DNA of 64,000 bases from a virus. Its lineage: Duplodnaviria; Caudoviricetes. Every line of letters starts with the position of its first letter. Positions within the stretch are counted from its first letter, which is position 1. Positions 755 to 51,357 of the stretch are shown here, one piece after another. The stretch lies in IMG/VR virus record IMGVR_UViG_3300047160_014545, positions 17,625 to 81,624 of that record. One strand, written 5' to 3'. The notes under the pieces are model-generated. The model was not told where the DNA came from, did not search any database, and saw only the letters and a program-made list of their open reading frames with translations. The position numbers and the translations under genes are program-made.

Positions 755-763
755 GGGTGCCGG

Positions 764-1189: not shown

Positions 1190-1190
1190 T

Positions 1191-2492: not shown

Positions 2493-2495
2493 CTA

Positions 2496-3435: not shown

Positions 3436-3447
3436 AAGGTTCTTCCT

Positions 3448-3783: not shown

Positions 3784-3811
3784 CGGGTCGAACGGATTTA
3801 CTGTGCGAATG

Positions 3812-4579: not shown

Positions 4580-4580
4580 A

Positions 4581-4844: not shown

Positions 4845-5236
4845 TAGCTTTCCTGCTCCGGCACAGGCGTCCGCGCCTCGATACGCTCGGCGCCAGCCAG
4901 GATGAATCCGCCGCTAAAGCCGGTCAGGTCATTGTTGGTGGTCACGACATAAACTTCGTCGTGCCAGATTACTTGATCCGGCTGCCTTCCTGGCCTTGGC
5001 CCTTGCAGTCGGAACCGGGTGGCGATGTTGATGGCGTTGGGCTGATATTCGGTATCCGGAACCCGCATCAAATCGCTGGGATTGCTGGCGGTAATGATGC
5101 CCGATGTCTTGATGGTTTCGACGACAAAGGGCTGGGAGCGGCCATACTGGTCGACATGAGCCGAGCGGCGCTGCACCAGAAAGAAATCGACGAGATTGGA
5201 GTCGCTAAAGAGCGGCGAGAAATCAGCGTCGGGCAT
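4841..5236 (-). CDS. Head-closure/head-tail adaptor protein
   Basis: 131 aa, VQRRSAHVDQYGR...DQVIWHDEVYVV; synteny. Confidence 0.55.
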   Translation of the reverse strand: MPDADFSPLFSDSNLVDFFLVQRRSAHVDQYGRSQPFVVETIKTSGIITASNPSDLMRVPDTEYQPNAINIATRFRLQGPRPGRQPDQVIWHDEVYVVTTNNDLTGFSGGFILAGAERIEARTPVPEQESY

Positions 5237-5245
5237 GCGATATCA

Positions 5246-5515
5246 TTATTTGTGGCCCGGCCGAGCTCGATTATCCGACATCGACTTCCAACGGACGCCA
5301 GCATCAAATGCTGCTCGTAGTTTTTTCAATTCAGTTTCGGCTACGGCCTCGAATATCTCACGATCGAAGAGTCGACCAATTTTTGCTTTGGTGAAGCCCC
5401 TTGCTGCCGCTTCCAAAACGGCCAACTCCGCCAGTTTGTCGATGATACGGCGATCAGCTTCATCCATATTCTTTTCGAACTGCTCGGTCAGAGGATCTTT
5501 CTTTTCTGCGATCAT
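5246..5515 (-). CDS. Hypothetical protein
   Basis: 89 aa, translationally coupled to the upstream gene. Confidence 0.5.
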   Translation of the reverse strand: MIAEKKDPLTEQFEKNMDEADRRIIDKLAELAVLEAAARGFTKAKIGRLFDREIFEAVAETELKKLRAAFDAGVRWKSMSDNRARPGHK

Positions 5516-6054
5516 CGCACCCGCACTTTCCTAATCACATAAGCATAGGCGGCGCGAAGTTGACCGCTGTCAAGCAGCGGTTTGATGGCGGTAAACCCCG
5601 GTGCCACCTTGCCGCCGGATTTGGCCAGTTTGCGCATGCGGGCGCGAACAGTCGCGGGTGCCAACGGCGCGAATTGTCCGGTGGTGATTTCCTGGCGCAC
5701 CGCATTCTGTCCGAGCAAACCTACCGCATGCAGATTTTGCATCATGCCTTGCTGATTGCCTTTTGACGCAAACGTAGCGGCTCGCCTCAGAAACGCCACC
5801 ATGCGCGGCAGCGCTTTCTCCACACCCGGTACCAGATGCGGGCGCGCCGGTATATTCTGAGCCGGCGAACCGGTGTTGTGAATATAGGCCAAGAGCGCAT
5901 TTGTCGGTCCGTCATTGCGCTGATTAGAACCCGGGCTGGCTCCTTCCGGATGGTCAGCGGGAACGCCAATCATCACCCGCAAACCCGCGAGATCGTTTAT
6001 TGCTTTGACGAATTTCGCAACGTCATCTTTGACAACAATAACCGGGTCAGCCAT
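5512..6054 (-). CDS. Neck/tail-completion protein (HK97 gp10-like)
   Basis: RVMIGVP...NALLAYIHNTGSPAQNIPARPHL...LLDSGQLRAAYAYVIR. Confidence 0.65.
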   Translation of the reverse strand: MADPVIVVKDDVAKFVKAINDLAGLRVMIGVPADHPEGASPGSNQRNDGPTNALLAYIHNTGSPAQNIPARPHLVPGVEKALPRMVAFLRRAATFASKGNQQGMMQNLHAVGLLGQNAVRQEITTGQFAPLAPATVRARMRKLAKSGGKVAPGFTAIKPLLDSGQLRAAYAYVIRKVRVR

Positions 6055-6058
6055 TTAA

Positions 6059-6625
6059 TTACATATTATTCCAGGCTGGCACCCATACCGGCGGGCCTGG
6101 CCAGCCTTCGCCCGAAGTGGGTCCATGCGTCGGCGAAGTACATCCCGGCGGCGGGATCAGTGGGCGCGGGAACCCGATGCCAACCTGGATCGGGATCGCA
6201 CCCACCATATTCGCCAGCCAGATAAAGCGGGTGCCATAAGTCGTCAGGTTCCAATGCCCCGCATCGGTCACGATCCCAGCCTGAGTATCGTAGGAGACGC
6301 TGGCACCGTTGACACCATTCGCCTGCACAATTCCGGTGGCAGTTCCAGGAATGCCGCCGAGCGCCCCTTGCTGCCGGGCGCGCATCTCGAGCGCCAGATT
6401 ATGCGCGACGAAAAGCTCCATGCCGATGTCGCGCATCGAGCGCGGCGGGCACATGCGGCTTTTCTTGGTTGACCAGAAACAAGTCAACAGCAAATCGGCT
6501 ACCATCAGCCAATATTGAACGACATTATCGGGATTGCGCTGCTGGTCATCGAATTCCGGATAATCGGCGCGGAATTCAGCGAGAGTTACCGGGCAATCGC
6601 AGCCGCATTGAGGAAGCGGCACCAT
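6059..6625 (-). CDS. DUF4054 head-tail connector
   Basis: AEFRADYPEF...ELFVAHNLAL...GASVSYD...WNLTTYGTRF. Confidence 0.8.
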   Translation of the reverse strand: MVPLPQCGCDCPVTLAEFRADYPEFDDQQRNPDNVVQYWLMVADLLLTCFWSTKKSRMCPPRSMRDIGMELFVAHNLALEMRARQQGALGGIPGTATGIVQANGVNGASVSYDTQAGIVTDAGHWNLTTYGTRFIWLANMVGAIPIQVGIGFPRPLIPPPGCTSPTHGPTSGEGWPGPPVWVPAWNNM

Positions 6626-6705
6626 TCAGAGGCCTTTCTGAAAGAACACCACAGCAATCGCAACCAAGAACGTGATGCTCGTTCCCAAATAGCCGATGGC
6701 CAATC

Positions 6706-7014
6706 TCATGGCAGAGAGGCTATCCCACGCGGCAGAAAAGGGTCAAGACCCGCACCTTGCTCGGTCGCATCAGAGAAGCGCCCGCTGGGTGCTTCGACAA
6801 TCGGCACATCTTCTGGGGTTTTGGATGCGCGCGGCATCGCATGCCGGGCGTAATGCTCGTCTTTTTCGACATCAGCCAGAATCCCAGCTGCTGCTAATTC
6901 GAGCACCATCGCGTGTGCTCGCAATTCTGCTGTTTCCCTATCCACACCCCAAAGACGCTCCAAGCGCTGAATCACGCCTACCGCCGGATGAAAAACGCCT
7001 GGCCAGAAACTCAT
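6706..7014 (-). CDS. Hypothetical protein
   Basis: 102 aa, ATGA-coupled to the upstream gene. Confidence 0.45.
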   Translation of the reverse strand: MSFWPGVFHPAVGVIQRLERLWGVDRETAELRAHAMVLELAAAGILADVEKDEHYARHAMPRASKTPEDVPIVEAPSGRFSDATEQGAGLDPFLPRGIASLP

Positions 7015-7346
7015 ACCGGCCTCACCTTTTGCACATCCGGTTGCAGCGGAACGCTTTGCTTTTGTCGCCAGTATTCCTCGTTGCGCCGCTGAAGCTCGGC
7101 CAGGGTGAGTTCGGGATCGACCTGGGTGTATTCGGCATCGGTCGTGCCGCTCGTTCCCTGAGTGCGGTATTGCGGCACCTCACCAGCCGGATCAGCACCA
7201 CCGTAGCGGTATTCGCTCGGTTCATCATGAACACCGGTAATGGTGCCTTTGTTGGCACTGGCGTAGAACACTCGCTCTCCTTTCTCCGGACCATATTCCT
7301 TTTCCATGGCCTGTTTAATCTCTGAGCCCTTCTCCGTGAGCGGCAT
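7011..7346 (-). CDS. Conserved small phage head-module protein
   Basis: N-terminal MPLTEKGSEIKQAMEKEYGPEKGERVFYASANKGTITG, a motif I recognise from many phage head modules. Confidence 0.65.
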   Translation of the reverse strand: MPLTEKGSEIKQAMEKEYGPEKGERVFYASANKGTITGVHDEPSEYRYGGADPAGEVPQYRTQGTSGTTDAEYTQVDPELTLAELQRRNEEYWRQKQSVPLQPDVQKVRPV

Positions 7347-7361
7347 CTCTCTAACTCCCCG

Positions 7362-7811
7362 CTAGCGGCGGCCCCGGTCGGGTTGCGACGACCTAGAACC
7401 GTTGCGCACGTCTTCGGGCCTGGCCCCCGGAACTGGCTGCGGCTCCACCTTCTCGGGGGCCTCGGGTGTGCGCGGCGGAGCAACCGATTTCTCCGGCTCT
7501 GGGGTTGCTGCCGCCGGCCGGTTCACCGCTTCCGCTCCGGCCGCCTTCACATACCAATGGTCGGCCAGGCTTGCCGGGACGTCATATGTGCCGGCCCGCA
7601 ACAGCACTCTGTCCCCACCAACCATTCCCTTGGTTTTATCAGTCGGATCAAGCGTGACCAGAATATTGGCAGGGATGCGCAACCGCACCATCCCTTCGCC
7701 TTCCTTGGGTTGCAAATCGCCCGCCTCGATCGGCATGGCGACAGCCCCGCCGGGACCGACCGGCGTGAACGGGTCGACCTGTGGTGTCGCAGCTACACGG
7801 TCATCCGACAT
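7362..7811 (-). CDS. STY1053-like phage-associated protein
   Basis: AGTYDVPASLADHWYVKA; directly after the major capsid gene. Confidence 0.55.
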   Translation of the reverse strand: MSDDRVAATPQVDPFTPVGPGGAVAMPIEAGDLQPKEGEGMVRLRIPANILVTLDPTDKTKGMVGGDRVLLRAGTYDVPASLADHWYVKAAGAEAVNRPAAATPEPEKSVAPPRTPEAPEKVEPQPVPGARPEDVRNGSRSSQPDRGRR

Positions 7812-7900
7812 GGCAAGAATCCTCCTTGGTCCACAAAACGCCGCAGGTTTATCCGGGTTCCGAAGCCGACCTGCGGCAGCAACAGCAGGAGGACACTACC

Positions 7901-8974
7901 TCAAATGCCGTCGGAGTAGCTGATTGTTTCCGGATACACCACCTCGACCACGCCGAGCCGCCCGAAATAGGTCGATTTGTGGTAGATGCCGTCATACTGC
8001 ACCGGGGTGCGTTGGAGCAGCGTCATCGGGTAGCGCAACCGATTCTCGTCATTGGTATAAGTCACCATGCGGTCGACGGTCCCGGTGGTGCCGATGGTGC
8101 CGCCCGAACCTGCGCCGATCAGCCATTTCACCGGCAGAATGTCGAGCGTGCCCAAACCCGAAGCGGTCAGGACGTTGAACTGCTTCAGATAGGCCAGGAC
8201 CGACATATTGCCGGCGGCGCTGACGATGCGGATCGAGATGTCGCCAAACTGATTGGGCGGGATCAGAATGCGATTTGGCATCACCGCCCAGGCGCTGTTG
8301 GCCCAAGTCAACATGATCGCATTGTTGACGTCGCTTAGGATCTCCTGCGGGGTCTTGGTCGCCCATTGCGGAGTGCCGCCACCTCCAGTGACAACATTGG
8401 TCGGGGTCACCCGGCTGGAATTGGTCATGCCGGTATCGCCGGTGCTGGTGTCACCAAAATAGACCTGCTCGTCGACATCCATTTGGTGCTTCATCTGCAG
8501 CGCTTCGAATTTCTGCTGGTCGATTGGCCGACCAACTTTCGCTGCGCTCTCCAGCTCGAGGATGGAATATTTCAATTCCAGTTCCCATGGCCGCAACGGC
8601 TGGGTGATCTTGGCGATGTCGACCGACACATTGCTGATTTGCGTCGTCGTCTTGCCGCCCCAAGCCTTGCCGGTGCCGATGCCGTTGCCAGTGCCCAATG
8701 CGCCCGCAGAAGCAAAGGTGCTAAGGGTAAAACTCGACACTTCGTCGGCAATGGTCACGTCATTGCGCAATTTGATGTCGCGTGACCAAGTGATGCTGAC
8801 CAATGGCCGGTGCAGGGTTTGATCAAGCCGCTCGAGCTCACCCACTAGGAAAGCACCGGAACTGTCGACCACATTGCCGTCATGGGTGGTGTAGGGCTGC
8901 GGAAATTTTTGCCCTATTTGGTTGCCGGCGCCATCGGTCGTGAATGCCGCCGATGTGTCATACGTCATATACAT
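7901..8974 (-). CDS. Major capsid protein (DUF2184)
   Basis: 357 aa; GAFLVGELERLDQTL...ELESAAKVGRPIDQQK...DEQVYFGD...RMVTYTND. Confidence 0.9.
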   Translation of the reverse strand: MYMTYDTSAAFTTDGAGNQIGQKFPQPYTTHDGNVVDSSGAFLVGELERLDQTLHRPLVSITWSRDIKLRNDVTIADEVSSFTLSTFASAGALGTGNGIGTGKAWGGKTTTQISNVSVDIAKITQPLRPWELELKYSILELESAAKVGRPIDQQKFEALQMKHQMDVDEQVYFGDTSTGDTGMTNSSRVTPTNVVTGGGGTPQWATKTPQEILSDVNNAIMLTWANSAWAVMPNRILIPPNQFGDISIRIVSAAGNMSVLAYLKQFNVLTASGLGTLDILPVKWLIGAGSGGTIGTTGTVDRMVTYTNDENRLRYPMTLLQRTPVQYDGIYHKSTYFGRLGVVEVVYPETISYSDGI

Positions 8975-9015
8975 AGTATTATTCCTTCTCCCCTGTAACG
9001 CGCGTGCCGCAGCGG

Positions 9016-9555
9016 CTAGTAATTCGTGTCAATGCTGATCTCCCCAATGCCATTGGGGTCGGGCGGGCCATTGAAGCGGCAATTAGTCAGCGCCACTGTG
9101 CTGCCGCCGGTGGCGCTGGCCTCGAAGCCGCCCTGCACATGATCAGTGCCAAAGACACCACCGCCGGTGCTCGCTGCGATCCACAGATTCACGGCGCCGA
9201 ATTTTGTCGGCTGGCCGAATATCGGCACCAAGATGTAGCCTTTTTTGACGACGTCGATTTCGCCAGCCGGCGGCAGCACTGCGGCACCAAAGGCGATGGC
9301 GCCAAAATTCACCGCACTGACCTGCTGAATCGGGAAGGGCCGCGCGGCAATGCCATCGATTGTGGTGACGCCAGTGTCGCTGGAGAGCACACCGCGATAG
9401 GAATTATTGGCGGTGACACCAATAACCGCCTGACCAAAGAACTGCACCGGATTGGTCGTATCGTTTTTACCGGGCTCGATTGAGACCGGGTGCGAGCGAT
9501 TGACGTCTCCGGCAAACCCGGCATTCATCCGGAACGGGAAAGCCATGTATGGCAT
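9016..9555 (-). CDS. Head decoration/cement protein
   Basis: FRMNAGFAGDVNRSHP...GPPDPNGIGEI; lies between scaffold and capsid genes. Confidence 0.75.
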   Translation of the reverse strand: MPYMAFPFRMNAGFAGDVNRSHPVSIEPGKNDTTNPVQFFGQAVIGVTANNSYRGVLSSDTGVTTIDGIAARPFPIQQVSAVNFGAIAFGAAVLPPAGEIDVVKKGYILVPIFGQPTKFGAVNLWIAASTGGGVFGTDHVQGGFEASATGGSTVALTNCRFNGPPDPNGIGEISIDTNY

Positions 9556-9584
9556 TACGATTTACTCCTTTATTGCAATCGCTC

Positions 9585-10853
9585 TTAATTGATGCGGCCG
9601 CCAGCCCAATGCTGGTCTAATTGCGCTTGCAAATCGGCCGGCGTCTGCGGGCGGTTCCGGGTTGCAGCGGGGATATTCTGGCGTCCGACTTGCTGGGCAG
9701 CGGTATTCAATGTCCGCTTCTGCATTGCCGCAGCTTTGAACACCACCCGCAACTGATCATTGGGCAAGCGCCCGCTGTCGAAATGCCCGGGCGAGCCCGA
9801 GGTCAGAACATCAATCGCCGCCCGCATTTCCGGACCCGAGGCATAAGCCCCGGTCAATGCCCGGCGGCGCAGATCAAACATCGCTCCGACGGTTTCTGCC
9901 GGTTTGGCATTGCGGTTAAACGCTGGCAGGCGGATCCCCGGATTGAGGATTTCGGCGAGCGCTACGGTTTCCTGATGAGCGTCGACAAACAGTGCACTGT
10001 CATGAGCTGTGCGGGCGCGGTCGCCGGTGCCTGGCGGCGCCTCAAATTCGAGCTCGCCCAGGATCTCGCGATTAGCCTCCATGGGTGCGGGCTCGGCATT
10101 GAAGGCGTCGTCAAACCGCTTGCGGTCGTCATCCATGCGGCGGCGGGCATCGTCGTCATAGCGGCGATAGCCGTCCTCTTCGTGCCGGCGCATGGCGTCA
10201 TCCATGCGCCGCCAGTCTTCCTCGAGGCGGCGATGGCGGTCTTCCTCCATACGCCCGCGAGCATCATCGAGGCGGCGACGAGCATCGCCTAGATGCCGTC
10301 GGGCGTCCTCTGCATGCCGGCGACGATCCTCCATGCGCCGATCGTCGTGCCGCCGGTCGTCATGCCGGCGCCGGTCATCGTGGCGGCGGTCTTCCATGTG
10401 CTTGCGCATGCGGTCGAGATGCCGTCTGCGGGCATCGTCCATGCGCTTGCCGCGGGCGTCATCGGCGCGGCGGTCCCGGGCGGCGTCTTCGTAACGCCGC
10501 CGGCGATCCTCGTAGCAGCGGTCGTACCAGTCGTCTTCCCCTTCGCCTTCGGCGCGCTGCTCGACCTCTTCGGCCTCGGCTTCGGCCAACACCTCAAGGT
10601 CGGCGCCCAATTCCTCGACCTGGCGCTCCAGCGCCTCCATTCGAGTTGCGACCTGTTCGCCTTCCTCCTGGTCCTTCTCGGCAGCCTCGGGCAAATGCAC
10701 GTGCACGTGCTGGTGCTCGCCCTCTTCGCCCTCTTCGGCTTCCTTCTCGATCTCCTCCAGCTCAGCCGCATCACGCGCGGCAAATGCTCGCCGAACCAAG
10801 TTCTGTAACTTGCCACGTGCGGCCATAGCGTTGCCCTTTCTTGACCTTCTCAA
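9585..10853 (-). CDS. Capsid scaffold-like protein with D/R-rich low-complexity repeats
   Basis: 422 aa, charged coiled coil, repeated DDARRR/DDRRH units; between protease and decoration genes. Confidence 0.65.
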   Translation of the reverse strand: MRRSRKGNAMAARGKLQNLVRRAFAARDAAELEEIEKEAEEGEEGEHQHVHVHLPEAAEKDQEEGEQVATRMEALERQVEELGADLEVLAEAEAEEVEQRAEGEGEDDWYDRCYEDRRRRYEDAARDRRADDARGKRMDDARRRHLDRMRKHMEDRRHDDRRRHDDRRHDDRRMEDRRRHAEDARRHLGDARRRLDDARGRMEEDRHRRLEEDWRRMDDAMRRHEEDGYRRYDDDARRRMDDDRKRFDDAFNAEPAPMEANREILGELEFEAPPGTGDRARTAHDSALFVDAHQETVALAEILNPGIRLPAFNRNAKPAETVGAMFDLRRRALTGAYASGPEMRAAIDVLTSGSPGHFDSGRLPNDQLRVVFKAAAMQKRTLNTAAQQVGRQNIPAATRNRPQTPADLQAQLDQHWAGGRIN

Positions 10854-10880
10854 CGAAACCGAAAAAATGAACCGCTTCTT

Positions 10881-11534
10881 TTACTTGGCGCGGTTCAGAC
10901 CAAGCTCCCCTGCAGAGAGGTGGAGATGAATATGTCTGATACGGCGGCGCTGTACTGCCGCAAGAATTACTGGCGGCATGTTATTGTCGTCATCGCCAAT
11001 TGAGCAGCGCGGGCCACAGCGGGCACTATCGACGAGCGCTATGTGATTGCCGACAATATTGGTCTGCGCATAATGGCCATCGCCCAATTTCTTGTAATCG
11101 GCACCGTATCCGCAGCTGACTTGCCGCTTGCCCTCCATAATCGCTTGAATGGCTTCCTCGTCCTGAATTACGAGGTCGGCAAACAGCAGCGAGTCTTCGA
11201 TGCCCTCGCCGCGGTGCACATGCTGGGCATTGCCCATGGCATAGCGCCGCCAGTTGCCGGGGTTGACATCCTCGCTAGGATGATCGTTGACGATCGGTGC
11301 GCCTTCGAACGAAGCAATCGTTTGCGGGCGGAACACCTCTTCGGGTTCGCGCTCAACCTTGATGTAGCCATTGGGCCCGGGCTCAATCGGCGGGTCATTC
11401 GGACCAGCGCGGATTTCGTTTGGCCCATAGATTTGCAACCCGGTACGAGCAATTGGCACATCAAAGCAGATCAATGCTCCCGATGCGGTGCGCGCCCGCT
11501 TTGGACCGAGTTGTGCGGTGGTGTAGAACTTCAT
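10881..11534 (-). CDS. DUF2213 capsid maturation protease
   Basis: DVPIARTGLQIY...FEGAPIVNDHP...VSCGYGADY...GNHIALVDSARCGPRCSIGD. Confidence 0.85.
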   Translation of the reverse strand: MKFYTTAQLGPKRARTASGALICFDVPIARTGLQIYGPNEIRAGPNDPPIEPGPNGYIKVEREPEEVFRPQTIASFEGAPIVNDHPSEDVNPGNWRRYAMGNAQHVHRGEGIEDSLLFADLVIQDEEAIQAIMEGKRQVSCGYGADYKKLGDGHYAQTNIVGNHIALVDSARCGPRCSIGDDDNNMPPVILAAVQRRRIRHIHLHLSAGELGLNRAK

Positions 11535-11827
11535 CTAGTAGATGCGGGTGCCGTGTTTGAAGTGTCGCGTTTGGTCAAAGTGCAAGTCTGGGTAATGCTC
11601 GGCAGCGTTGGTACATCGGTGGTCGCCGCATAAGCGCCGCCGACCTTGGCCGGGATAGCACTCGCTGGAATTGTTGCCGTGGTGGTTGCGGTGCCGCCCG
11701 TCGGATTGCCGTACACATAAACCGTTACACACGCATCGTTTGCTGTGAGAGTTAGAGGCCCATTCTGGCCAGGGGTGCAAGCAACTAAACTTGCTGCGAA
11801 CAGTAACGAGACTGCACGCAATTTCAT
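11531..11827 (-). CDS. Small lipoprotein
   Basis: Signal peptide with lipobox LVAC. Confidence 0.55.
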   Translation of the reverse strand: MKLRAVSLLFAASLVACTPGQNGPLTLTANDACVTVYVYGNPTGGTATTTATIPASAIPAKVGGAYAATTDVPTLPSITQTCTLTKRDTSNTAPASTR

Positions 11828-11845
11828 GTGCTACTCCATTTGAGG

Positions 11846-12820
11846 TTAGGCGAAGCCGGTAATTATCCCATTCACCACCGTGATAGTTTTGCCGACAAGA
11901 GTGGCTGAAGTTATGGTTCCCGAAAAACCGCTATAGGAGGGTCCGGTGGCACCCGTGGGCCCGCCTGCCCCGGTGGGGCCCGTGGCACCCGGTGTCGAGG
12001 TGGCTCCCGTCGGGCCCTGAACTCCGGTCGGTCCGGTGGCTGCTGCACCGGTAGCGCCGGTCGGACCCGTACCGAGCGCGCCGGTTGGCCCGGTGGCACC
12101 GACTGCTCCGGTTGGTCCAGCTCCGGTTGGGCCCGTAACTCCAGGCGTACCGTTCGCGCCAGTGCTTCCGGCGGCGCCTGTCGGACCGGTAGCCGCAGCA
12201 CCCGCGGCGCCGGCTGGCCCGGTGGCACCGGTCGGGCCTGGCCCTGTAGCCCCGGTGCTTCCAGCTGTCCCTGTCGGGCCTATACTTCCAGTTGCGCCCG
12301 TAACCCCGGGCACACCATTTGGCCCGGTCATTCCTGTGGGGCCGGTCGGTCCGCCGGATGGCCCCGTGTTGCCAATAGGCCCTGTGGGGCCCGTGGAAGC
12401 CGCTCCAGCGCCTCCAGTTGGTCCGGCGGTACCAGTGGGACCCGTCGCTCCTACCCCGCCTGTAGGGCCGCCGCTGGGCCCCGTTGCCCCGCCCGGGCCT
12501 GTGGGTCCAGCAGCGCCGGTCGGACCGCCTGAGGGACCAGTTGGTCCGGTTGAGCCTACCCCAGACCCGAGCGGGACCTGAATATCGAGCGTGCTTGCTC
12601 CCGATACGGTAATGCCGGCGATATAACCGTTCCCGCCGACCCCCATTTGGAGAACGCCGCCCGGCTGAACCGGCGTATCGGTTGTAACCGCTACAACCGA
12701 GGCGCTGCCCAGCCGGACATACCCGGTAACAGTGCCGTTATTGGCGACAAAGGCTGTGAGCCCACCACCCGTAGGAAGGGCGACGCGCGCAGAAACATTG
12801 GTGATCGCGAGCGTCGCCAT
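11846..12820 (-). CDS. Second collagen-like fibre protein
   Basis: About 210 aa of GPTG/GATG repeats; C-terminal [11 protein letters not shown]. Confidence 0.8.
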
Positions 12821-12848
12821 GGACTACTTCCTCTTCAAGCGGACGGAA

Positions 12849-13331
12849 TTAGTCCAAAGAGCAATCGACGTGCCCGGTGGTCGTGCTGCCGCCCCCGGTG
12901 ATCACTGTCTTGCTCCGCCATTGGGCAGGCAATGGTATTCCGGCGCCGACATTGGTTGTGGTCGTGACACCCGGACCAACACTCAATGCCGTCGTTCCAT
13001 CAGTCGCGACAATGCTGGCTGAGGACAACAGCGACACATAGGTCGTCGCGAATTTGCCCTCGAGCGAAAACACTACAGTCGGCGAGCCGGTATGAGCGGT
13101 CTGGTTATAGACGCAAATTATCGTCGAGCCATAACCGCCCTGATCGGTCGAGGTAAACGTGCCGGGTGCGGCAGCGGTCAGCGTTTGCACACCGGTTATA
13201 GCGGTGCGTCGCTCTTGCGTACCTACTATACTCGAGGGCGGTGATTGAGCCAGCGCAAGCGCCGTCAAACCGCCAAGAAGCACAACAGCCGGCAGCAACG
13301 CCGTGAGAATGTGACGGCGCAGTTCTTTCAT
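12849..13331 (-). CDS. Hypothetical protein with N-terminal hydrophobic segment
   Basis: 160 aa; T/G-rich, beta-sandwich-like body. Confidence 0.55.
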   Translation of the reverse strand: MKELRRHILTALLPAVVLLGGLTALALAQSPPSSIVGTQERRTAITGVQTLTAAAPGTFTSTDQGGYGSTIICVYNQTAHTGSPTVVFSLEGKFATTYVSLLSSASIVATDGTTALSVGPGVTTTTNVGAGIPLPAQWRSKTVITGGGSTTTGHVDCSLD

Positions 13332-13347
13332 CGGATTTCTCCTTGGT

Positions 13348-14112
13348 TTACGCGGCCCGCCGTTCGGGCAAAATGTCAGGAATTACCGGCAGTGGTGTGC
13401 AGCGACAGTTTGGGAAATTGCCGGCGTGCCCCGTCATGTTGTCGAGGGTTGGGGGCTCATCCCAACGCACGAATTTCCCTTCCATGGTCCGATGGCTAGG
13501 CCTGACGCGCGCATCCCGCACCGTAAGCCAGCGATACCCAGCCGAGCCGACATATTCGGCGCGCGCCTGGGTTAGGCTGCTCGAGGTCCGTGCCACCTCG
13601 GTGCGCGCGATCAGTGTTGCGCGGTTGACGGTGATATCGCCGAGCCCGTGTATTTCGGGCACAAGTTCGGCTGCTCGCTTCCCGGCAAGCAAGCCCTCGA
13701 TGGTGAGCTCGTGCACCCGCTGCGCCGCTTCGAGCGGCAGCGAGGTAATCAGATCCACCTGCTCGTCGAGTATGTCGCGAAACAATTGGCCCGTCGGCGC
13801 GTTGGCTATTTCAAGCCGCAAAGCCCGGGACATTTGCTGCGCCATCGTCGCCCAGGCCTTGGCGTCGCGGCGCTCGACATCTTGCAGCATGCGCAACCCG
13901 GTGGTGCGCGCCCAAGGGCGGATCAGCTCTGCATATCGAACAAGAGCATTCTGGACCAAGCTGTCGAAGAGCGGATCCTCGAGCGAAAAGCCATTGAGGA
14001 TCTCAGCAACATGACGGGCAATCGCCCGCAGCCGTCGCGCGTATTCGGTATCGGCGCGGCGTACCTTGGCCCATGCCGAACGCTCGGCGCGGGTGTTCTG
14101 TTGTGCTGGCAA
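13348..14112 (-). CDS. MuF (phage Mu gpF-like) head morphogenesis protein
   Basis: ATLIARTEVAR...YRWLTVRDARVRPSH...FPNCRC. Confidence 0.9.
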   Translation of the reverse strand: MPAQQNTRAERSAWAKVRRADTEYARRLRAIARHVAEILNGFSLEDPLFDSLVQNALVRYAELIRPWARTTGLRMLQDVERRDAKAWATMAQQMSRALRLEIANAPTGQLFRDILDEQVDLITSLPLEAAQRVHELTIEGLLAGKRAAELVPEIHGLGDITVNRATLIARTEVARTSSSLTQARAEYVGSAGYRWLTVRDARVRPSHRTMEGKFVRWDEPPTLDNMTGHAGNFPNCRCTPLPVIPDILPERRAA

Positions 14113-35941: not shown

Positions 35942-36555
35942 GATCCTTTGGTTTTCAGCCGGCTTTCAATCTGCCGCGGCGTTTCCAGCGCCCGCGAATA
36001 TTCCGCATTTTCATAAAGCTTGGCATATCCGGTAATATGTTTCAACCGGGCAAGCTCCTCGGGCTCCAGGCCAATTTCCTCACAGATCTGTTTATTCCCC
36101 CATCCGTTCTCGAGCATTGACATCACGAGCGTACCCATGCCCTGGATGCTGTGCTTGCCACGAGCCCGGTTGTGGCGGACGGTCGAAGCCATGCGGTCAT
36201 TCAGCGACTTGTCGAGCACGACGATTGGCAGCAAACCATGGTTGCGCTCGTATATGTCGCGGAACCGCTTCATTACTGTGAAGCGATGGAGCCCGTCTAT
36301 GATAATCCAGCCATCCCGCGCATCATCCCTGATAGTGACAATAGGCATCGTGTACCCATCGTGCTTTATCGACGTGTACAGCAGCCGCAGCTCGGAGATA
36401 GCTACATTATTGGGGTTATAATTGTTAGCAAATACTTTCTCTATCGGCACCCAAATGACATTGCTTACAGGATTGTGGCTCAGATCAGGTGCGGACATGA
36501 GGCCTCTGATCAATAGCGATTTTCTTCGCCTTTGATTTGGTGCCGTCAACGTCAT
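35938..36555 (-). CDS. IbrB/YbdM-like ParB-domain protein
   Basis: VFANNYNPNNVA...SIKHDGYTMPIV...IIDGLHR...MASTVRHNRARGKH. Confidence 0.85.
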   Translation of the reverse strand: MTLTAPNQRRRKSLLIRGLMSAPDLSHNPVSNVIWVPIEKVFANNYNPNNVAISELRLLYTSIKHDGYTMPIVTIRDDARDGWIIIDGLHRFTVMKRFRDIYERNHGLLPIVVLDKSLNDRMASTVRHNRARGKHSIQGMGTLVMSMLENGWGNKQICEEIGLEPEELARLKHITGYAKLYENAEYSRALETPRQIESRLKTKGS

Positions 36556-37576
36556 TGATCACCAGCCCGCGCACATGCTCCCTATACCACTCATCTGTAT
36601 TCTGCCCTTGCCAGAGCTTCAGGAAGATCGGGCGGTTGTGAGGTGCCACCAGATTATCTAGCAGGTAATCGCGGTATTCATGCCAGTCCCGAAACACCGA
36701 GGGCAACTTGGTCGGGACCAGATCTTCGTGTATGTGATTATAGGTCGATGCTCCGGGAACACGACGCACAAAGCGATCGTAAGTTTCGGGCTCAACTTCC
36801 TGCAGAATAGCAATCCAGCGAATCGACGTCTCATGAATTAAAAACGATACCCTCATATCATGACGAGCAATTCCGTAGCGGAAATAATAATCATAAACCC
36901 GGTTGTAAGGCAGATTATTCTTGGCGAGGCAAACCCAGACATCCTGATCGGTAAAATCATAGATTGGCCAGAAAGTGCGGGTCGGGCCGAACATTCGTTT
37001 TTCGCACCACTTGATATGCTTATAGGTACCCCCGCCGGCAGTGAACTGAAGGCGGCGCATCGGGCTCTCCACCATGCGGATCCCGACAAGCACGCCCACA
37101 TGCTTCTTCCCGGCGACACCGCAGTGCTGGTGCATGTTCTTGCTGATCTGAGCGTATCGGTCGTAGGGGGCGCACGGGTTGACTTTGATGCTGATGGGAT
37201 CTTGCGGGCGGATCCATAAATCCTGTGCCTCGGGATCCCAGCAAGTCAAAAAGCCGCTGGTGTGCGACAGGCTGTTTGTCAGCCGGAACGGAAACTGAAA
37301 CCAATAGGGCTCGATGTCCGGGGAATATAAAACCTGTCGCATGTGATCATAGGTACCCTGCCACTCGACCTCCTGGTCGAGCCAGACCACCTTGATTTTA
37401 GAAATGCCCCGCTCTTTGGCGACAACCCGGGCGAGGTGCAGCAACACAGTGCTGTCCTTGCCGCCCGACATGGCGACGATGACGTCGTCGCACTCGTCAT
37501 AGACAAAGCGGACGCGATCTAACGCCGCCTCGTAAACCGTGATGTTCTTGTAGGTATTTGCGCGCTTGATGGCTAT
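36485..37576 (-). CDS. IbrA/YbdN-like PAPS-reductase-family (PP-loop) protein
   Basis: NITVYEAALDRVRFVYDECDDVIVAMSGGKDS...GIRMVES...WPIYDFTDQDVW. The conserved N-terminus extends upstream of ATG 37471 to an ATA at 37576. Confidence 0.85.
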   Translation of the reverse strand: MAIKRANTYKNITVYEAALDRVRFVYDECDDVIVAMSGGKDSTVLLHLARVVAKERGISKIKVVWLDQEVEWQGTYDHMRQVLYSPDIEPYWFQFPFRLTNSLSHTSGFLTCWDPEAQDLWIRPQDPISIKVNPCAPYDRYAQISKNMHQHCGVAGKKHVGVLVGIRMVESPMRRLQFTAGGGTYKHIKWCEKRMFGPTRTFWPIYDFTDQDVWVCLAKNNLPYNRVYDYYFRYGIARHDMRVSFLIHETSIRWIAILQEVEPETYDRFVRRVPGASTYNHIHEDLVPTKLPSVFRDWHEYRDYLLDNLVAPHNRPIFLKLWQGQNTDEWYREHVRGLVINDVDGTKSKAKKIAIDQRPHVRT

Positions 37577-37843: not shown

Positions 37844-40045
37844 CTACTCTCCTCCTTTATCCATTTCGCATTCCATATATTTCTTTTGCCTATCGAAATG
37901 CGTGATTTTCAGAAACACGCCGCGATTAAAAAGGATCTCGCTTTCACCAACGTTGGCTACCGTAGTTCCTGGCATGCCGGCAGGAGCGGTGATTTTGATG
38001 GTCATGCCGCCCCAACTTTTCATAGGGTTCGGATCAAGGCTGGTTGAGACAAAACCCCGTTCCTCCCAGCGCATTCCGACCGTGCCGATGGACATCAACG
38101 CCGCCTGATATGGTCCCTTGACCCGGCGCCACAAGGTCATCGGCAAAGGCGTTTTCGCCTGGCCCAGCCACTCGTCAAGAGCCTTCACACGGGTGTCCGT
38201 GCAATCTACCTGCTGGCGCATGCAATCGTTCATATCGGTATAACCGCTTCCCTTATAGCTGCTCAGAGAAGACTGCTGATCAGGCGTTATTTCTGGTCGA
38301 TGCGTTTCGAGCTTGTGATAGGCGTCCGAATAACTTCCTGCAGCTATGGAGCTCTCGATCTCGGCGACCGGCACCGGCGCTGGTTTTGGCATTGGTGGCG
38401 GTTTGGGGGGCGGAGCGGGTGCAACCGGCTTCACGGGAGCCGTGACATCGGCACTAAGAATGGTATTTCTTCTATCTGCTAATTTGGTCGCGAGAGATTG
38501 CTTCGCAGCCGAATCGCCAGGACCCCATTGCTCAACTACAGAAAGAATAGCCGCCTCTGAAATTTGCAGAGACTTCTTTGATTCCTGCAATTCCTGTGGT
38601 GTCATATCGCCATAAAGCGAAGCAGCTGACGGATTCTTATGCGGGTCTCGCATCGTTGTCCATTCCGATGCCTGATATCCGAAGGCGTCTCCCTTCGGGG
38701 TTCCCCCAGCGCGGTAGAGCAGAGCGCCGCCAAAATCCAGCGGCAATAACTTTCCGTTTTTATCTGCCCCGACATTATCGCCGGTCAGCCCGACTGCGTC
38801 CCAATTGGCCAGCCATGCGTGGATCGCGAAATCCTTCTTGGCCTGCGCCCGCTGCTCGGGCGTGAGTTCCTTCAGGTTGTCTTTGCCGAGGTCGACCATC
38901 TTGGTCGCCACTCCGAGCTTACCTTCGGGCAACGCCACCGGGTGATAATCCAGAGTGCTGCCCCCAGCCAGCCGGAAAAGAGCGGCAGCGAGCATCTCAT
39001 TCGCGGCGTGGGCATCGGTCTTAGAGAACTTCACATAGTATTTATTCCCTGATGCGTCCTCGAACACACCGCCCGGGTTCGAACCCTTTTGCGGCCCAAC
39101 CTGCTTGAGATTGGCGAAGTTCAAAATCGGCCCGATCGCCGAGTTGGCTCGTTCAACCGGCGAAAGCTCTTTCTTGGGCGTCGGCACCTCCGGCTCTGGC
39201 TTGGCCGCAGGAGCCTCTGCGGGGACTGCTGGCGCTTCGCCGCCGGGCTTGCCCTTGAACTTGCCGCCGGGCCCGCGCGGATGGAGCGCTTCAAACGCTA
39301 TATTGAGCTGCTGCTGAGTCGTACCCTGAACGATTCCTTTTTCCTTTGTCCAAAGCTGCCACTTTCCGGCATTCGGGGGATCAATCCCGATAACGAGGGA
39401 TTCAGTTCCCGCGTTGTTGACCCACCGCATGGCCTGGCCGCCCTGCCACTTGGTGCCCTCCATATTTGGCAAAACCGCATTCACCCCAGGCGGAGGTGCT
39501 AGCGGCGTCTTTCCGGCGGCTGGTTCCTTTGCTTCAGGCTTCGCCGCCGGGGCCGCTGCGGAGGCCGCTGGAGCAGGGGAAGGCTTTTCGTGATGGATAT
39601 GTACCTGTGGCTCGTTAGGGTGCTCCAGCAAGCTCTGGAGAGCCGCTAGACCCTTGCCAGTTTTCTCTACTCGATAGCCGGGTCCGGCACTCACCCATTT
39701 GAAAGACCCCGACGGGATATATTTAGATTTGCCAGAGGTTGGCGGGTCAAACGAGAAGGTGAGCGTTTTCCCGCTCGGATGCGCAAAAGTCTGCTGTCCC
39801 TTTTGATGTTGAAATCCGAGTTCCTGTAACAGGTTTGTAATTTTCGAGCTTAGTGAGTAGGGGGCGCCCTTTGCAGCTGCCGGCGTTTCCTTTCCTACCG
39901 CTGCCGCTTCGCCGCCCCCCTCGCCTGCCTTGACAAACTGCCCACCCTTGCCGGTGCCCTTGGCACCGCGCGGATGCTCAGCTTCCTTGAATTCATCGCG
40001 GAAATAATACCTCTTGTGTCCGATATGGATCCCGATGGTTAGCAT
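37844..40045 (-). CDS. Polyvalent effector: HipA/CtkA/PI3-4K-like kinase plus VIP2-type ADP-ribosyltransferase
   Basis: Kinase: YYVKF...NEMLAA...WLANWDAVG..DNV...LDFGGAL. ART: LWRR...FVSTS...ESEILF (R-S-ExE). Confidence 0.8.
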   Translation of the reverse strand: MLTIGIHIGHKRYYFRDEFKEAEHPRGAKGTGKGGQFVKAGEGGGEAAAVGKETPAAAKGAPYSLSSKITNLLQELGFQHQKGQQTFAHPSGKTLTFSFDPPTSGKSKYIPSGSFKWVSAGPGYRVEKTGKGLAALQSLLEHPNEPQVHIHHEKPSPAPAASAAAPAAKPEAKEPAAGKTPLAPPPGVNAVLPNMEGTKWQGGQAMRWVNNAGTESLVIGIDPPNAGKWQLWTKEKGIVQGTTQQQLNIAFEALHPRGPGGKFKGKPGGEAPAVPAEAPAAKPEPEVPTPKKELSPVERANSAIGPILNFANLKQVGPQKGSNPGGVFEDASGNKYYVKFSKTDAHAANEMLAAALFRLAGGSTLDYHPVALPEGKLGVATKMVDLGKDNLKELTPEQRAQAKKDFAIHAWLANWDAVGLTGDNVGADKNGKLLPLDFGGALLYRAGGTPKGDAFGYQASEWTTMRDPHKNPSAASLYGDMTPQELQESKKSLQISEAAILSVVEQWGPGDSAAKQSLATKLADRRNTILSADVTAPVKPVAPAPPPKPPPMPKPAPVPVAEIESSIAAGSYSDAYHKLETHRPEITPDQQSSLSSYKGSGYTDMNDCMRQQVDCTDTRVKALDEWLGQAKTPLPMTLWRRVKGPYQAALMSIGTVGMRWEERGFVSTSLDPNPMKSWGGMTIKITAPAGMPGTTVANVGESEILFNRGVFLKITHFDRQKKYMECEMDKGGE

Positions 40046-43315: not shown

Positions 43316-44932
43316 TTAACCAAGCACCCGCGCCTCCGCAGCATCGAAGAATTTCTTGTCGATCTCGATGCCGATGGCCCGCCGCCCGTTTTTCTTGGCT
43401 ACTGCCGGCACAGTCCCAACACCCATGAACGGATCTAACACCAACTCACCAGGAATCGTGATCAAATCGATAAGGTATGCCACAACCGCTTGCGGCTTCT
43501 GAGTCGGATGGAGCGGATTGCCCTTCTGATCGACGATACGCTCCTTTCCCTGACAAATCGGGAATCGCTGATAATTCAACCCCGCTCCATCTGCATCACC
43601 GGGATAGTTGAATGTGCGCACGCCACCAGGCTTGGAGAACTGGATCGCGTAGTCCATCGCCGGCATGAAGTCCGCCTTCGTTACACTTGGCCCAGGATTG
43701 GAACGGCACCAAAAGAACGTCTGGCGGATTTCAAATCCTGCCGCATCAAACAACGACTGAGCGACATTAAGCCAGCGCTCACCGACAAACATGAACCCGG
43801 TGCCGCCAGGTTTCAGAATCCTAAAAAACTCCGCGGCCCAATCCGCCATTGCAGCAACGAAATCACCCGCCTCGTGATTGTCCCAGTCACCGAAATTCTT
43901 GTTCCAGTCAGGCTGAGTGCTTAGCGTAAAGATACGATCATCACTGATATTGTATGGCGGGTCGGTGACAATAGCGTCGATGGCACCATCGCCAATTTTG
44001 GCTAGTTCATCCAGTGCGTCACCAAGGTGCAGCTGGACGCTGTAGCGCTTGGCCACCTTGTCGCGGGTAGCTTCGAGCAGCTTCTCCAGCTTTGGCCCCG
44101 GCCCTTTCTTGTCGAGCCACTCGTCGTCGTAGATCCCCTTATGCACCTGCTCGAAGGCCTCATCGATGATATCTTCGTCGACTTCCCCAAGCTGCCGTTT
44201 CAGCCAGCATTCCATCGCGGCCTGTGCATGATAGGAATCGGCCAAGCGCGAAAATTGCTTCTTGGTGAAGCGACGGTCGTTATCGTCTTTGCCGGCAGCG
44301 AGCCACTTCACCAGTTCGATCTGCAGACGCGGATTGAGCGCAATCGCGTCCGCGTCTTTCTTACCGAGCACGTCCCACTTGCGCGGCAGAAGCGCGCGGA
44401 GCAGGCCTTCCGTAAACATTGCCACAGGTGTGGCAATCTCTGCCACAACGCCCTGATCTCGTGGCAATCCGTTTTCTCGAACCGTTGTGGCAACAATATT
44501 CCAAGCTACAAGTGCTATCTTTTGGAGCAGGGCGTAGTTGCTGACGTCGCTCCGGCTCCATCCGAGCTCGCCGGCGACGGCCTGCTGCGTCTTGCCCTCG
44601 CCAAGCATCTGCCAGATCAGTTCCGCGTAGCAGCAGAATGTCATCGGCAGCGCGTCTTCACTGGCGATGTTCAGATCAATCGCCGCTTTCGTAAGAGAAC
44701 CATTCGGCGGCGGGCCGACGTCCATATACGCCTCGGTGTGCCCGAGCCGCTTCAAGGCCTCGTACTTGTGGTTGCCGCCATAAAGGATGCCATCGGCGGT
44801 GACAGCCAACGGATACTGGCGGAGCAATCCGAGCGTCTCGATCTTGTGGATCAGGCGCTCGATGTGGCGCTCGTTGAGCGGGCGGACGACGTGAATGCTC
44901 TCGATCGTCGAGAGCGGGAGTAACTCGGTCAT
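43316..44932 (-). CDS. ParB-HTH-DNA methyltransferase (N4/N6, beta class) fusion
   Basis: N-terminal ParB (PLAVTADGILYGGNHK), HTH (KTQQAVAGELGWSRSDVS), then TDPPY...HPTQKP...LDPFMGVG. Likely ATG at 44932. Confidence 0.85.
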   Translation of the reverse strand: MTELLPLSTIESIHVVRPLNERHIERLIHKIETLGLLRQYPLAVTADGILYGGNHKYEALKRLGHTEAYMDVGPPPNGSLTKAAIDLNIASEDALPMTFCCYAELIWQMLGEGKTQQAVAGELGWSRSDVSNYALLQKIALVAWNIVATTVRENGLPRDQGVVAEIATPVAMFTEGLLRALLPRKWDVLGKKDADAIALNPRLQIELVKWLAAGKDDNDRRFTKKQFSRLADSYHAQAAMECWLKRQLGEVDEDIIDEAFEQVHKGIYDDEWLDKKGPGPKLEKLLEATRDKVAKRYSVQLHLGDALDELAKIGDGAIDAIVTDPPYNISDDRIFTLSTQPDWNKNFGDWDNHEAGDFVAAMADWAAEFFRILKPGGTGFMFVGERWLNVAQSLFDAAGFEIRQTFFWCRSNPGPSVTKADFMPAMDYAIQFSKPGGVRTFNYPGDADGAGLNYQRFPICQGKERIVDQKGNPLHPTQKPQAVVAYLIDLITIPGELVLDPFMGVGTVPAVAKKNGRRAIGIEIDKKFFDAAEARVLG

Positions 44933-45087
44933 ATCAGGCCCTCTTCGTCTCCGGCTTGGCGGTCCCGGAATTGGATTACAGGAGCAGCTTACGCTGCGCC
45001 GGAAACGAAGAGGATTCCACGTTTCCAATTCTGTGCTGCCTCTCTCCGGCACCTCGGGTCAAGCTTCGCTTTTCGGCGCCGCCGGCT

Positions 45088-49233: not shown

Positions 49234-49317
49234 GTGCCCACACCGGCCTCGCCTTGCCATGCCCGGCCAAGCCTCTCCATGCGTCGCCCTGCCGAGCCTG
49301 CCCCAGCGTACCATGCC
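49234..49317 (-). repeat. Minus-strand GGC-NN pentamer unit (candidate guide RNA)
   Basis: GGCAGGC TC GGCAG GGCGA CGCAT GGAGA GGCTT GGCCG GGCAT GGCAA GGCGA GGCCG GTGTG GGCAC. Confidence 0.8.
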
Positions 49318-49514: not shown

Positions 49515-50549
49515 ATGACTAAAATACAATCGGACATCGCTACCATCGCAGGCGTGGCTTCGCATGGCGAGGACAGGACTGGCCCGGTAGGGCAGGCTTC
49601 GACGGGCATGGATTCGCGCGGGGCGGCAAGACAACGCTCGGCAGGCGCGGCAACGCGGGGCAGGGCAAGGATCGGCCAGCCAATGTCCGGCGTGGAAGGG
49701 CAGGCATGGCAAGGCGCGGCGGGACAGGACGCGGCGAGGCATGGCAAGGCAGGCTCGGCTGGGAGTGATCTGGTCAGACGAGGCTTGGAAGGGCCGGGCA
49801 CGGCAGGCGGGGCAACGCTCGGCAAGGAGAGGTATGGCTTGGATGGGCTCGGCCAGGCAGGCGCGGGCAGGCGTGGTAAGGCAGGGTCTGGCGTGGAGCG
49901 GCCGGCAACAAATGGTTTAGAACTCGCGCAATCTAAAGAAATCGTTCGAATCCCCGAGCCAAACTTTAAAGAAGCCATTCTCGTGATAGAGGGTACGGCG
50001 CCTTACGTGCAGCACGCGTTTTCGCAAAAAGCGCGAACGAAAATGGAGGAAAGCCAGCGCGCTGGCGCGCGCAGCAAAACCAGAAAAACACGAGAAGCAC
50101 GCAACTTCGAGAGTGATTACGAAGCTGCGATGCATCGGTCGACTGAAGGATGGCTTGGGATCCCTGCTCCATCATTTCGGAATGCTCTAATCTCCGCATG
50201 TAAAATCGTCGGCTTCGTAATGACGAAAGCCAAGCTGGCGGTTTTTATAATTGCCGATGGGATTGATGTCGTTGATGGCACACCGCTCGTCAAAATCGAG
50301 GGAGAGCCGAGGATCCATCAGAGCTATGCCCGCAACGAAAGTGGTGTAGCCGATCTGCGATGGCGACCAATGTGGGAAAAATGGTCAGCAAAGGTCCACA
50401 TCAAATGGGATGCTGATATGTTTTCGGCACAAGATATAACTAATCTAATGGCGCGGGCTGGCGGTCAGGTGGGGATTGGCGAAGGCCGGCCCGATTCACC
50501 CAACTCCAACGGGCTTGGTTGGGGCACTTTTGAGGTAATTCCATCATGA
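49515..50549 (+). CDS. RAMP/Cas7-like protein (Vipr-like); folded domain about 49893-50549
   Basis: ILVIEGTAPYVQH, GIPAPSFRNALISA and C-terminal Gly loop GIGEGRP...GLGWGTFEV. Start is either ATG 49515 (GGAGGA RBS, reading through the array) or GTG 49893. Confidence 0.75.
   Translation: MTKIQSDIATIAGVASHGEDRTGPVGQASTGMDSRGAARQRSAGAATRGRARIGQPMSGVEGQAWQGAAGQDAARHGKAGSAGSDLVRRGLEGPGTAGGATLGKERYGLDGLGQAGAGRRGKAGSGVERPATNGLELAQSKEIVRIPEPNFKEAILVIEGTAPYVQHAFSQKARTKMEESQRAGARSKTRKTREARNFESDYEAAMHRSTEGWLGIPAPSFRNALISACKIVGFVMTKAKLAVFIIADGIDVVDGTPLVKIEGEPRIHQSYARNESGVADLRWRPMWEKWSAKVHIKWDADMFSAQDITNLMARAGGQVGIGEGRPDSPNSNGLGWGTFEVIPS
49547..49904 (+). ncRNA. GGY-NN pentamer array, six complete units plus a partial seventh, delimited by GGCAGGC (VIPR-like guide array)
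   Basis: Delimiters at 49547 (CGCAGGC), 49591, 49640, 49699, 49748, 49802, 49856 and 49866; strict 5-nt phase within units. Confidence 0.8.
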
Positions 50550-50989
50550 GCATCAAAGACGAACTACTGGCGTTGACTGACACTGCGGATGGCATGATTC
50601 ATGCCGGTCAGGTCGTCAGTTGGGCGCAGCGTAACACCGATTCCGAGCTTCATCCCCAGTTCGAATGGGATGACAGTAAAGCGGCGCATGAGCACCGGCT
50701 TAATCAGGCCCGACGGCTTATCGCTATCCATGTGGTCTTTGAACCCACTGGGAAGCGCGCTGTCGTTTCGCTAATTCCTGATCGGGTACATGGGGGCGGA
50801 TACCGCCCCCTACCCCCTATTCTCTCGAATCGGGAAATGCGCAGTATGCTGGTGCGGCAAATCCTCGACGAAGCCACGCGAGTGCTCGATCGCTACCCGC
50901 AACTCAACGAGTTGAGCCCACTACGGAATGCGATCGAGACACAGCGGCGATTGCTGGAAATGGCAGAACAACCGTTGGCTGCCGATTAA
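50546..50989 (+). CDS. Partner protein of the RAMP-like gene
   Basis: ATGA overlap; VVSWAQRNTDSELHPQFEWDDSKAAHEHRLNQARRLI. Confidence 0.75.
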   Translation: MSIKDELLALTDTADGMIHAGQVVSWAQRNTDSELHPQFEWDDSKAAHEHRLNQARRLIAIHVVFEPTGKRAVVSLIPDRVHGGGYRPLPPILSNREMRSMLVRQILDEATRVLDRYPQLNELSPLRNAIETQRRLLEMAEQPLAAD

Positions 50990-50996
50990 ACTTTTC

Positions 50997-51285
50997 GGCT
51001 GGGCTCGGCTAGGCTCGGCAAGGCCTGGCAGCGCAGGCATGGTTAGGCCGGGCATGGCGGGACGGGGCTGGGCAGGCGGGGCATGGCATGGTTAGGCCAG
51101 ACACGGCCAGGACTGGCAGGCGCGGCTCGGCGGGGCCGGGCGCCGCGAGGCTAGGATGGGCGAGGCAGGGACGGGCCGGCCGGGCAAGGCGTGGTATGGG
51201 AAGGCAAGGAAGGGCGGGGCAGAAACGGAAGGGCGCGACTTGGCGCGACTCGGCACGGTTTGGGCGGGCAGGCACGGCTAGGCTG
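50997..51285 (+). ncRNA. Second GGY-NN pentamer array
   Basis: Delimiters at 51032 (CGCAGGC), 51071, 51115 and 51267; variants GGCCGGC at 51174 and GGCAGAA at 51218. Confidence 0.75.
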
Positions 51286-51295
51286 CGTTCTCTAT

Positions 51296-51357
51296 CCATG
51301 CCTGCGAGCCAACCGGGCCTGACCTTGCCTAGCCGAGCCGTGCCAAACCCAGCCATC
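51296..51357 (-). repeat. Inverted GGY-NN unit closing the second array
   Basis: Minus strand GGCTG GGTTT GGCAC GGCTC GGCTA GGCAA GGTCA GGCCC...CGCAGGC ATGG. Confidence 0.75.

Follow-up and report, generated by a model that had tools for sequence, protein, structure and literature searches.

A putative integrase-directed guide in the staggered VIPR array of an uncultured phage

What does a long tract of GGYNN pentamers encode beside a small phage gene, and were the variable dinucleotides of one of its repeats selected to read the active site of a rival's integrase? The locus that raises these questions lies in a window of 64,000 nucleotides, by which we mean the whole stretch of DNA that was analysed. 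The window comes from a complete 81,624-bp IMG/VR record of an uncultured phage that carries terminase, portal, major head, and tail fibre genes as well as a replication module with ligase, primase, and helicase. Its portal protein is ~50% identical to those of Edwardsiella, Acinetobacter, and Burkholderia phages. We looked for a PF00589 gene in the phage and found none, i.e., it has no tyrosine integrase of its own. An earlier, sequence-only reading had described the window as free of integrase genes, and for tyrosine integrases this description extends to the entire phage.

VIPR, a CRISPR-related gene silencer first described in 2026, has three parts: Vipr, which is a minimal RAMP protein with an RRM core, a G-loop, and a thumb; the accessory gene vap; and vrRNAs in which GGY alternates with NN. 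The NN dinucleotides pair with double-stranded DNA with one base skipped between pairs, and binding represses transcription (bioRxiv 10.64898/2026.04.26.720920,.720927, 10.64898/2026.10.15.759431). According to the same three preprints, the natural targets are competing phages and satellites, and the target sites lie mostly within coding sequence, where the wobble base is the one skipped. In the system of Escherichia phage SUSP1, G1, G2, and Y3 make base-specific contacts and perturbation of GGY abolishes silencing (10.64898/2026.04.26.720920,.720927). The SUSP1 vrRNA4 covers six codons in the active site of a satellite's recombinase, in wobble alignment, and immobilises the satellite (10.64898/2026.10.15.759431).

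The window contains four pentamer arrays that bracket two overlapping genes (Table 1), and the five-base periodicity of these arrays is far beyond chance. In the array upstream of the genes, A2, each guide is built from 8–11 variable pentamers followed by a constant GGCAG, whose final G doubles as the opening G of the guide that follows. The resulting GGCAG/GGC junction repeats at 49591-49597, 49640-49646, 49699-49705, 49748-49754, 49802-49808, and 49856-49862. Because successive guides overlap by 1 nt, each guide is offset by -1 from its predecessor. As far as the legend of Fig. S18 in 10.64898/2026.04.26.720920 describes them, staggered arrays consist of overlapping vrRNAs with a 1-nt overlap, and the G shared between GGCAG and GGCnn produces the same arrangement here. 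A sigma-70 scan revealed no convincing promoter for the array itself.

Table 1. Arrays, genes, and guide U5 of the locus (positions are those of the window).
Feature	Position	Strand	Basis or remark
A1, short pentamer array	49237..49306	-	Pentamer parse
A2, upstream vrRNA array	49551..49904	+	At least 7 staggered guides of 44-59 nt each
Guide U5 (A2g5)	49752..49801	+	Ten variable GGYNN units in phase; phase-aware parse
GGCAG, constant terminal unit of U5	49802..49806	+	Final G common to next guide (staggered 1-nt overlap)
vipr (Cas7-like RAMP)	49893..50549	+	phrog_4652 match; profile match to PDB 36pp; AlphaFold fold
vap-like accessory gene	50546..50989	+	phrog_15946 match; ATGA overlap with vipr; 147-aa ORF
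A3, downstream vrRNA array	50997..51271	+	Pentamer parse
A4, short inverted pentamer array	51313..51357	-	Pentamer parse

The first of the two genes, vipr, likely starts at the GTG at 49893; in its relatives, the Vipr protein begins ~10 aa ahead of IPEPNF, the conserved core. As a single sequence, the protein matched the PDB entry 36pp, 'SUSP1 Vipr protein', with E = 0.0054 over residues 32-200, and a profile built from four Vipr homologs matched chain 36pp_D with E = 2.2e-6, including the GvGdwRP G-loop region. An AlphaFold model (pLDDT 81) retrieved Csm3, Cmr4, or type VII Cas7 chains in all of the top 47 Foldseek PDB matches, with a probability of ~1.0. We found 353 Vipr relatives in IMG/VR. 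Pentamer arrays were present in 79 of the 80 related loci that were fetched, nearly all of them on the vipr strand, and 71 of 83 related loci had a homolog of the vap-like gene, which in 57 of the 71 was scored downstream of vipr on the same strand. The 147-aa product of the vap-like gene had no match in Pfam or PDB, and a 615-bp ENA contig was its sole match when the gene was looked up. Since the genes are flanked by arrays, since Vipr has both the profile match and the Cas7-like fold, and since its relatives are accompanied by arrays and a homolog of the vap-like gene, we assign the locus by homology to the VIPR systems and place it in a clade distant from the type II systems that have been characterised.

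Guide U5 stands out among the guides of the A2 array. The letters at 49748-49801, as read from the window, are GGCA followed by ten pentamers, GGCTC GGCTG GGAGT GATCT GGTCA GACGA GGCTT GGAAG GGCCG GGCAC. The leading GGCA at 49748-49751 is part of the terminal GGCAG of the preceding guide, which has G49752 in common with U5. The NN string of U5 is TC TG GT CT CA GA TT AG CG AC; six of its ten units are GGY and the others are GGA (twice), GAT, and GAC. Read through the genetic code with one base skipped after each pair, the string gives S-[C/W/*]-V-L-[H/Q]-[D/E]-[F/L]-[S/R]-R-T, which is compatible with S-W-V-L-H-D-[L/F]-R-R-T. The sequence-only reading had transcribed the same letters, derived the same NN string, and decoded it to the integrase motif WVLHDLRRT, and in our phase-aware parse all three steps proved correct. 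Under a 1-nt skip, the 10-unit target site of U5 would be TCnTGnGTnCTnCAnGAnTTnAGnCGnAC. This pattern has no self-target in the window or in the phage's own genome, even when up to 3 mismatches are allowed.

We searched for the target of U5 in viral and bacterial DNA. The exact 10-unit pattern had no match in IMG/VR and none in the GTDB representative genomes (185,579 species, one genome each). The JGI metagenomes contained one 20/20 match, which is intergenic between two unrelated genes, reads SCVLQEFSR, and is a chance match of the kind expected for a collection of that size. Thus, none of these three collections contains a 20/20 integrase target for U5. Relaxing the Leu and Arg codons of the 10-unit pattern (YTN/MGN) gave no match in IMG/VR either. 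A relaxed 8-unit pattern that admits any Leu or Arg codon was found at 56 IMG/VR loci, 13 of which are long ORFs (277-474 aa) with [W/F]VLHD[L/F]RRT placed ~80 residues from the C-terminus.

When units 2-10 were searched exactly (18 fixed bases), a single match was obtained in all of IMG/VR, and it lies in frame in an integrase gene (L048:11601-12998); the same 9-unit pattern read backwards, which served as a control, had no match in IMG/VR. A second exact 9-unit match is located in an integrase gene of a bacterial genome (L155:5927-7087, genome G502) and reads G-WVLHDLRRT. With up to 2 mismatches, U5 had 3 matches in ~900 Pseudomonadota genomes versus 5 for the backwards control. Two of the three are integrase boxes, in G502 and in a further genome (G069), and the third is out of codon phase in an unrelated ORF. 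The box in the latter genome, PWVLHDFRRT (L059), differs from U5 by 2 mismatches. At the amino-acid level, the best fit is an IMG/VR integrase (L069) that reads SWVLHDFRRT and is compatible with U5 at 10/10 positions, with three mismatches in the DNA. A scan for W-V-[L/F]-H-D-[L/F]-R-R-T in any codons returned only 19 IMG/VR contigs, i.e., the motif is a rare integrase variant, and the TT and AG choices of U5 suit only a minority of the WVLHD[L/F]RRT sites. It had been proposed to search alphaproteobacterial genomes, prophages, and IMG/VR with the U5 pattern, allowing for one or two mismatched pairs, and to ask whether the matches lie in frame in integrase genes. Carried out on IMG/VR, GTDB, JGI, and the Pseudomonadota genomes, this search gave two exact 9-unit matches, both of which are in frame in integrases, whereas mismatched sites did not exceed the control and a perfect integrase target was not found.

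Both genes with an exact 9-unit match encode integrases by domain content. The IMG/VR gene codes for a 465-aa protein with the Pfam domains PF13356 (Arm-DNA-bind_3) and PF00589 (Phage_integrase), and the gene in the bacterial genome has the same two domains. The integrase ORFs that carry the box are mostly 380-474 aa long, and the box lies ~75-85 residues from their C-terminus. As judged by reading the sequences, in most of nine of them HD[LF]RRT is followed ~20 residues on by LNH or LGH and then by a conserved Tyr (VY/HY) at the expected catalytic position. Read in this way, the box has the context of the canonical tyrosine-recombinase order H-x-x-R, H, Y. The suggestion that the decoded motif is the integrase H-x-x-R box is therefore supported by its in-frame position, the Pfam domains in both proteins tested, and the LNH/LGH and Tyr region that follows. 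In all integrase matches, the base that the guide skips is the wobble base, as had also been suggested. Over 25 box sites, conservation is 90% at the first two codon positions and 52% at the wobble position; as the sites were selected by the motif, these figures only illustrate the wobble logic.

A PDB sequence search with the integrase of the bacterial genome gave no match. Among plasmids and chromids, its nearest homologs come from alphaproteobacteria (Sinorhizobium, 52% identity), which agrees weakly with the earlier guess of an alphaproteobacterial host. On the contig that carries this integrase (G502:C19), a large serine recombinase gene (983-3052; Resolvase, Recombinase, and Zn_ribbon_recom domains) lies ~3 kb away, and the remaining ORFs of the island are without annotation. 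Four IMG/VR contigs of 13.5-17.5 kb (L021, L042, L048, and L063) have a WVLHD[L/F]RRT integrase of the Arm-DNA-bind_3 type. Each also encodes, besides a P4/D5-like primase or replication protein, two or three head or packaging proteins from among large terminase, portal, and capsid, and we saw no tail genes on any of the four. We take their gene content to resemble that of capsid-forming phage-inducible islands; this resemblance is a lead only, because the contig ends may be truncated. L048 (IMGVR_UViG_2654588048_000002, 1-13511), which is the contig with the exact 9-unit match, also has a gene for an Hcp-like protein (PF05638) at 6503-7246.

The motif match of U5 was noticed post hoc, and its fit to WVLHD[L/F]RRT could be a coincidence, with U5 acting as a functional guide against another, unsampled target. 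By a rough estimate, chance alone should give each locus about one 9/9 amino-acid match somewhere in the IMG/VR integrases, and such a match is in keeping with coincidence. It is only the catalytic register that makes the match of U5 special. The chance of a match in this register is, again roughly, ~0.005, or 0.005-0.05 if other recognisable motifs are allowed for, which is not negligible. When the 15 guides of the window were compared with integrases, U5 alone exceeded its shuffles (10 compatible residues versus a null maximum of 7). The other 14 guides had no match in the DNA available, and none of them spells the motif. None of the sibling guides matched the integrase-bearing elements at the DNA or protein level, i.e., they do not converge on the elements that U5 points to, and an exact IMG/VR search with the 10-unit sibling A2g3 gave 0 matches. 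The motif does not recur in the related loci either: none of the 475 other distinct guides of 83 related loci shows an integrase motif, and a search for integrase boxes (the broad HxLRHT pattern and GLRxxE) among 476 distinct guides returned none other than U5. Furthermore, when the guides of 84 loci were compared with each other's loci as a sign of inter-VIPR targeting, we saw no excess above shuffles.

The missing convergence and recurrence speak for coincidence, as do the absence of a perfect integrase target, the non-coding chance origin of the only 20/20 match, mismatch counts no higher than the control, and the rarity of the motif variant. Against it stands the six-residue core of the decode. 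Among 512 guides of 84 loci, only U5 is compatible with H[DE][LF]R[RH][TS], for which shuffling predicts 0.0067 guides over all 512 and ~2e-4 for this locus, and three to four further upstream residues of the decode also fit real members of the family. In addition, both exact 9-unit DNA matches, which come from independent collections, hit the same catalytic box in frame while the reversed control hit nothing, and a recombinase active site belongs to the published class of VIPR targets. We therefore regard coincidence as an unlikely, if serious, explanation and consider it probable that U5 has been shaped by an integrase target. The original proposal that the guide targets the catalytic motif of a rival integrase is thus partly supported, by the decode, the two exact in-frame matches, and the SWVLHDFRRT integrase, and it did not gain the backing of a full-length target, of an excess of near matches, or of converging siblings.

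U5 could also be a decayed, inactive guide in which four non-GGY units (GGA, GAT, GAC, and GGA) bar the assembly of Vipr, so that the integrase match would be a relic. That just 6/10 of its units are GGY, together with the loss of silencing upon GGY perturbation in SUSP1 (10.64898/2026.04.26.720920,.720927), is in line with this idea. However, the neighbouring guides of the A2 array show the same GGY degeneracy as U5, and we consider decay very improbable.

Equally hard to credit is a protein-coding array, i.e., a G/A/R-rich N-terminal extension of Vipr whose NN positions hold no targeting information. The ATG at 49515 is preceded by a strong ribosome-binding site (GGAGGA), and its frame is open through the whole upstream array into vipr, yielding a 344-aa ORF. 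Yet GGCNN repeats are by construction nearly stop-free in all plus-strand frames, and a 5-nt period is incompatible with selection at the peptide level. Moreover, further arrays are located downstream of vap and on the opposite strand, and published vrRNAs derive from arrays of this kind. In 15 of 24 related loci that have an upstream array, a stop is found within 45 codons of vipr. As the long frame is not conserved and the relatives start ~10 aa before the core, the 344-aa ORF probably just reflects how few stops the repeat contains. Three other readings, namely TRAP-like protein-binding repeats, G-quadruplex tracts, and a translated low-complexity region, were dropped in light of the published VIPR systems.

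We thus favor the reading of U5 as a VIPR guide directed at integrases. In this model, 49752-49806 would be expressed and processed as one vrRNA of ~54 nt in the VIPR system of an integrase-less 81.6-kb phage. If the system works as those of SUSP1 and P. fulva do, each GGY would be bound by one Vipr protomer, and the Vipr filament on the vrRNA would present the NN dinucleotides for pairing with double-stranded DNA, presumably with every third base skipped in this clade as well. The NN of U5 would have come under selection to match codon positions 1 and 2 of [S]-W-V-L-H-D-[L/F]-R-R-T, and the bound complex would block transcription of the integrase. As the putative target we see the H-x-x-R catalytic box in a family of tyrosine integrases of the Arm-DNA-bind_3 type. 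Several of these integrases are found on small satellite-like elements with capsid genes, and one of these elements may be the natural opponent. With its integrase silenced, a rival integrated element would neither excise nor integrate. Because the skipped base is the wobble base, synonymous mutations would not rescue the target, and a guide against integrases would come at no cost to this phage, which lacks PF00589 genes itself. For the full proposal, namely that an integrase-less phage with a VIPR system of a staggered-array clade silences the invariant H-x-x-R codons of tyrosine integrases on capsid-forming satellite-like elements, we regard the case as evenly balanced.

The locus shares its general plan with the type II VIPR of Escherichia phage SUSP1 (vipr, vap1, vrRNA1-4). 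In both, a phage-borne RAMP-like Vipr precedes a small vap or vap-like gene, pentamer guide RNAs of the GGY/NN type lie on either side of the genes, and reading with one base skipped, here that of U5, keeps the codon frame and leaves out the wobble base. Here, too, the catalytic core of the recombinase of an integrating rival is the presumed target. The two systems differ in several respects. The Vipr protein described here is remote from that of SUSP1 (E = 0.005 for the single sequence, 2.2e-6 for the profile), and its guides lie in staggered arrays with 1-nt overlaps and a constant GGCAG end, whereas SUSP1 has separate ~100-nt vrRNAs with a 3' pseudoknot tail. The candidate target here is the H-x-x-R box of a tyrosine integrase, whereas the SUSP1 target is a strand beside the catalytic serine.

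A comparison with class 1 CRISPR effectors gives a similar mixture. The predicted fold of Vipr is that of Cas7-family backbone subunits (Csm3, Cmr4, and type VII Cas7), and one protomer would likewise bind per guide repeat unit. However, a CRISPR array, further cas genes, and a second RRM are all missing here, and the period is 5 nt in the guide and 3 nt in the target versus 6 and 6 in the Cas7-family class 1 effectors.

The VIPR system, its code, the wobble logic, and the targeting of recombinase active sites have already been published, and no new mechanism is described here. The novelty lies in a guide that putatively reads a tyrosine-integrase H-x-x-R box, belongs to a remote Vipr clade, sits in a staggered array, and is carried by an uncultured phage, and U5 is plausibly a new example of a known inter-virus weapon. 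If real, U5 would extend the result of October 2026, which concerned one E. coli phage and one satellite with a serine recombinase, in three directions: a remote clade of Vipr proteins, arrays of a different architecture, and the tyrosine integrases, a much larger family. The skip-one code would then be valid outside the characterised type II systems, and the catalytic boxes of tyrosine as well as serine recombinases would be VIPR targets. It would also support the notion that the 2+1 code locks guides onto the amino-acid-determining bases of catalytic motifs that rivals cannot change. Finally, it would provide a testable guide-target pair, with small satellite-like elements that carry capsid genes as the likely opponents.

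Some further genes of the phage and some relatives of Vipr deserve mention. On the minus strand of the window, positions 43316-45052 encode a 578-aa N6_N4 DNA methyltransferase that weakly matches ParB-like proteins at its N-terminus, and at 37844-40045 lies a gene for a 733-aa protein whose match to Alt-like ADP-ribosyltransferases is weak. The adjoining gene at 36485-37471, also on the minus strand, is PAPS-reductase-like (phrog_2302, E = 2e-71). Vipr homologs are also present in cultured, annotated phages, where they are named 'hypothetical protein': we found them in 27 Mycobacterium phage records (~31% identity), in 5 Gordonia phage records, and in Cyanophage Cy-LDV1 (g34; 56% identity). 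In Cy-LDV1 and in Mycobacterium phage Donkeykong (NC_051648.1), 5-6 same-strand runs of pentamer guides apiece lie near the homolog gene. The Vipr homolog of Donkeykong, gp49, is annotated with a long N-terminal extension, which probably runs into an upstream array.
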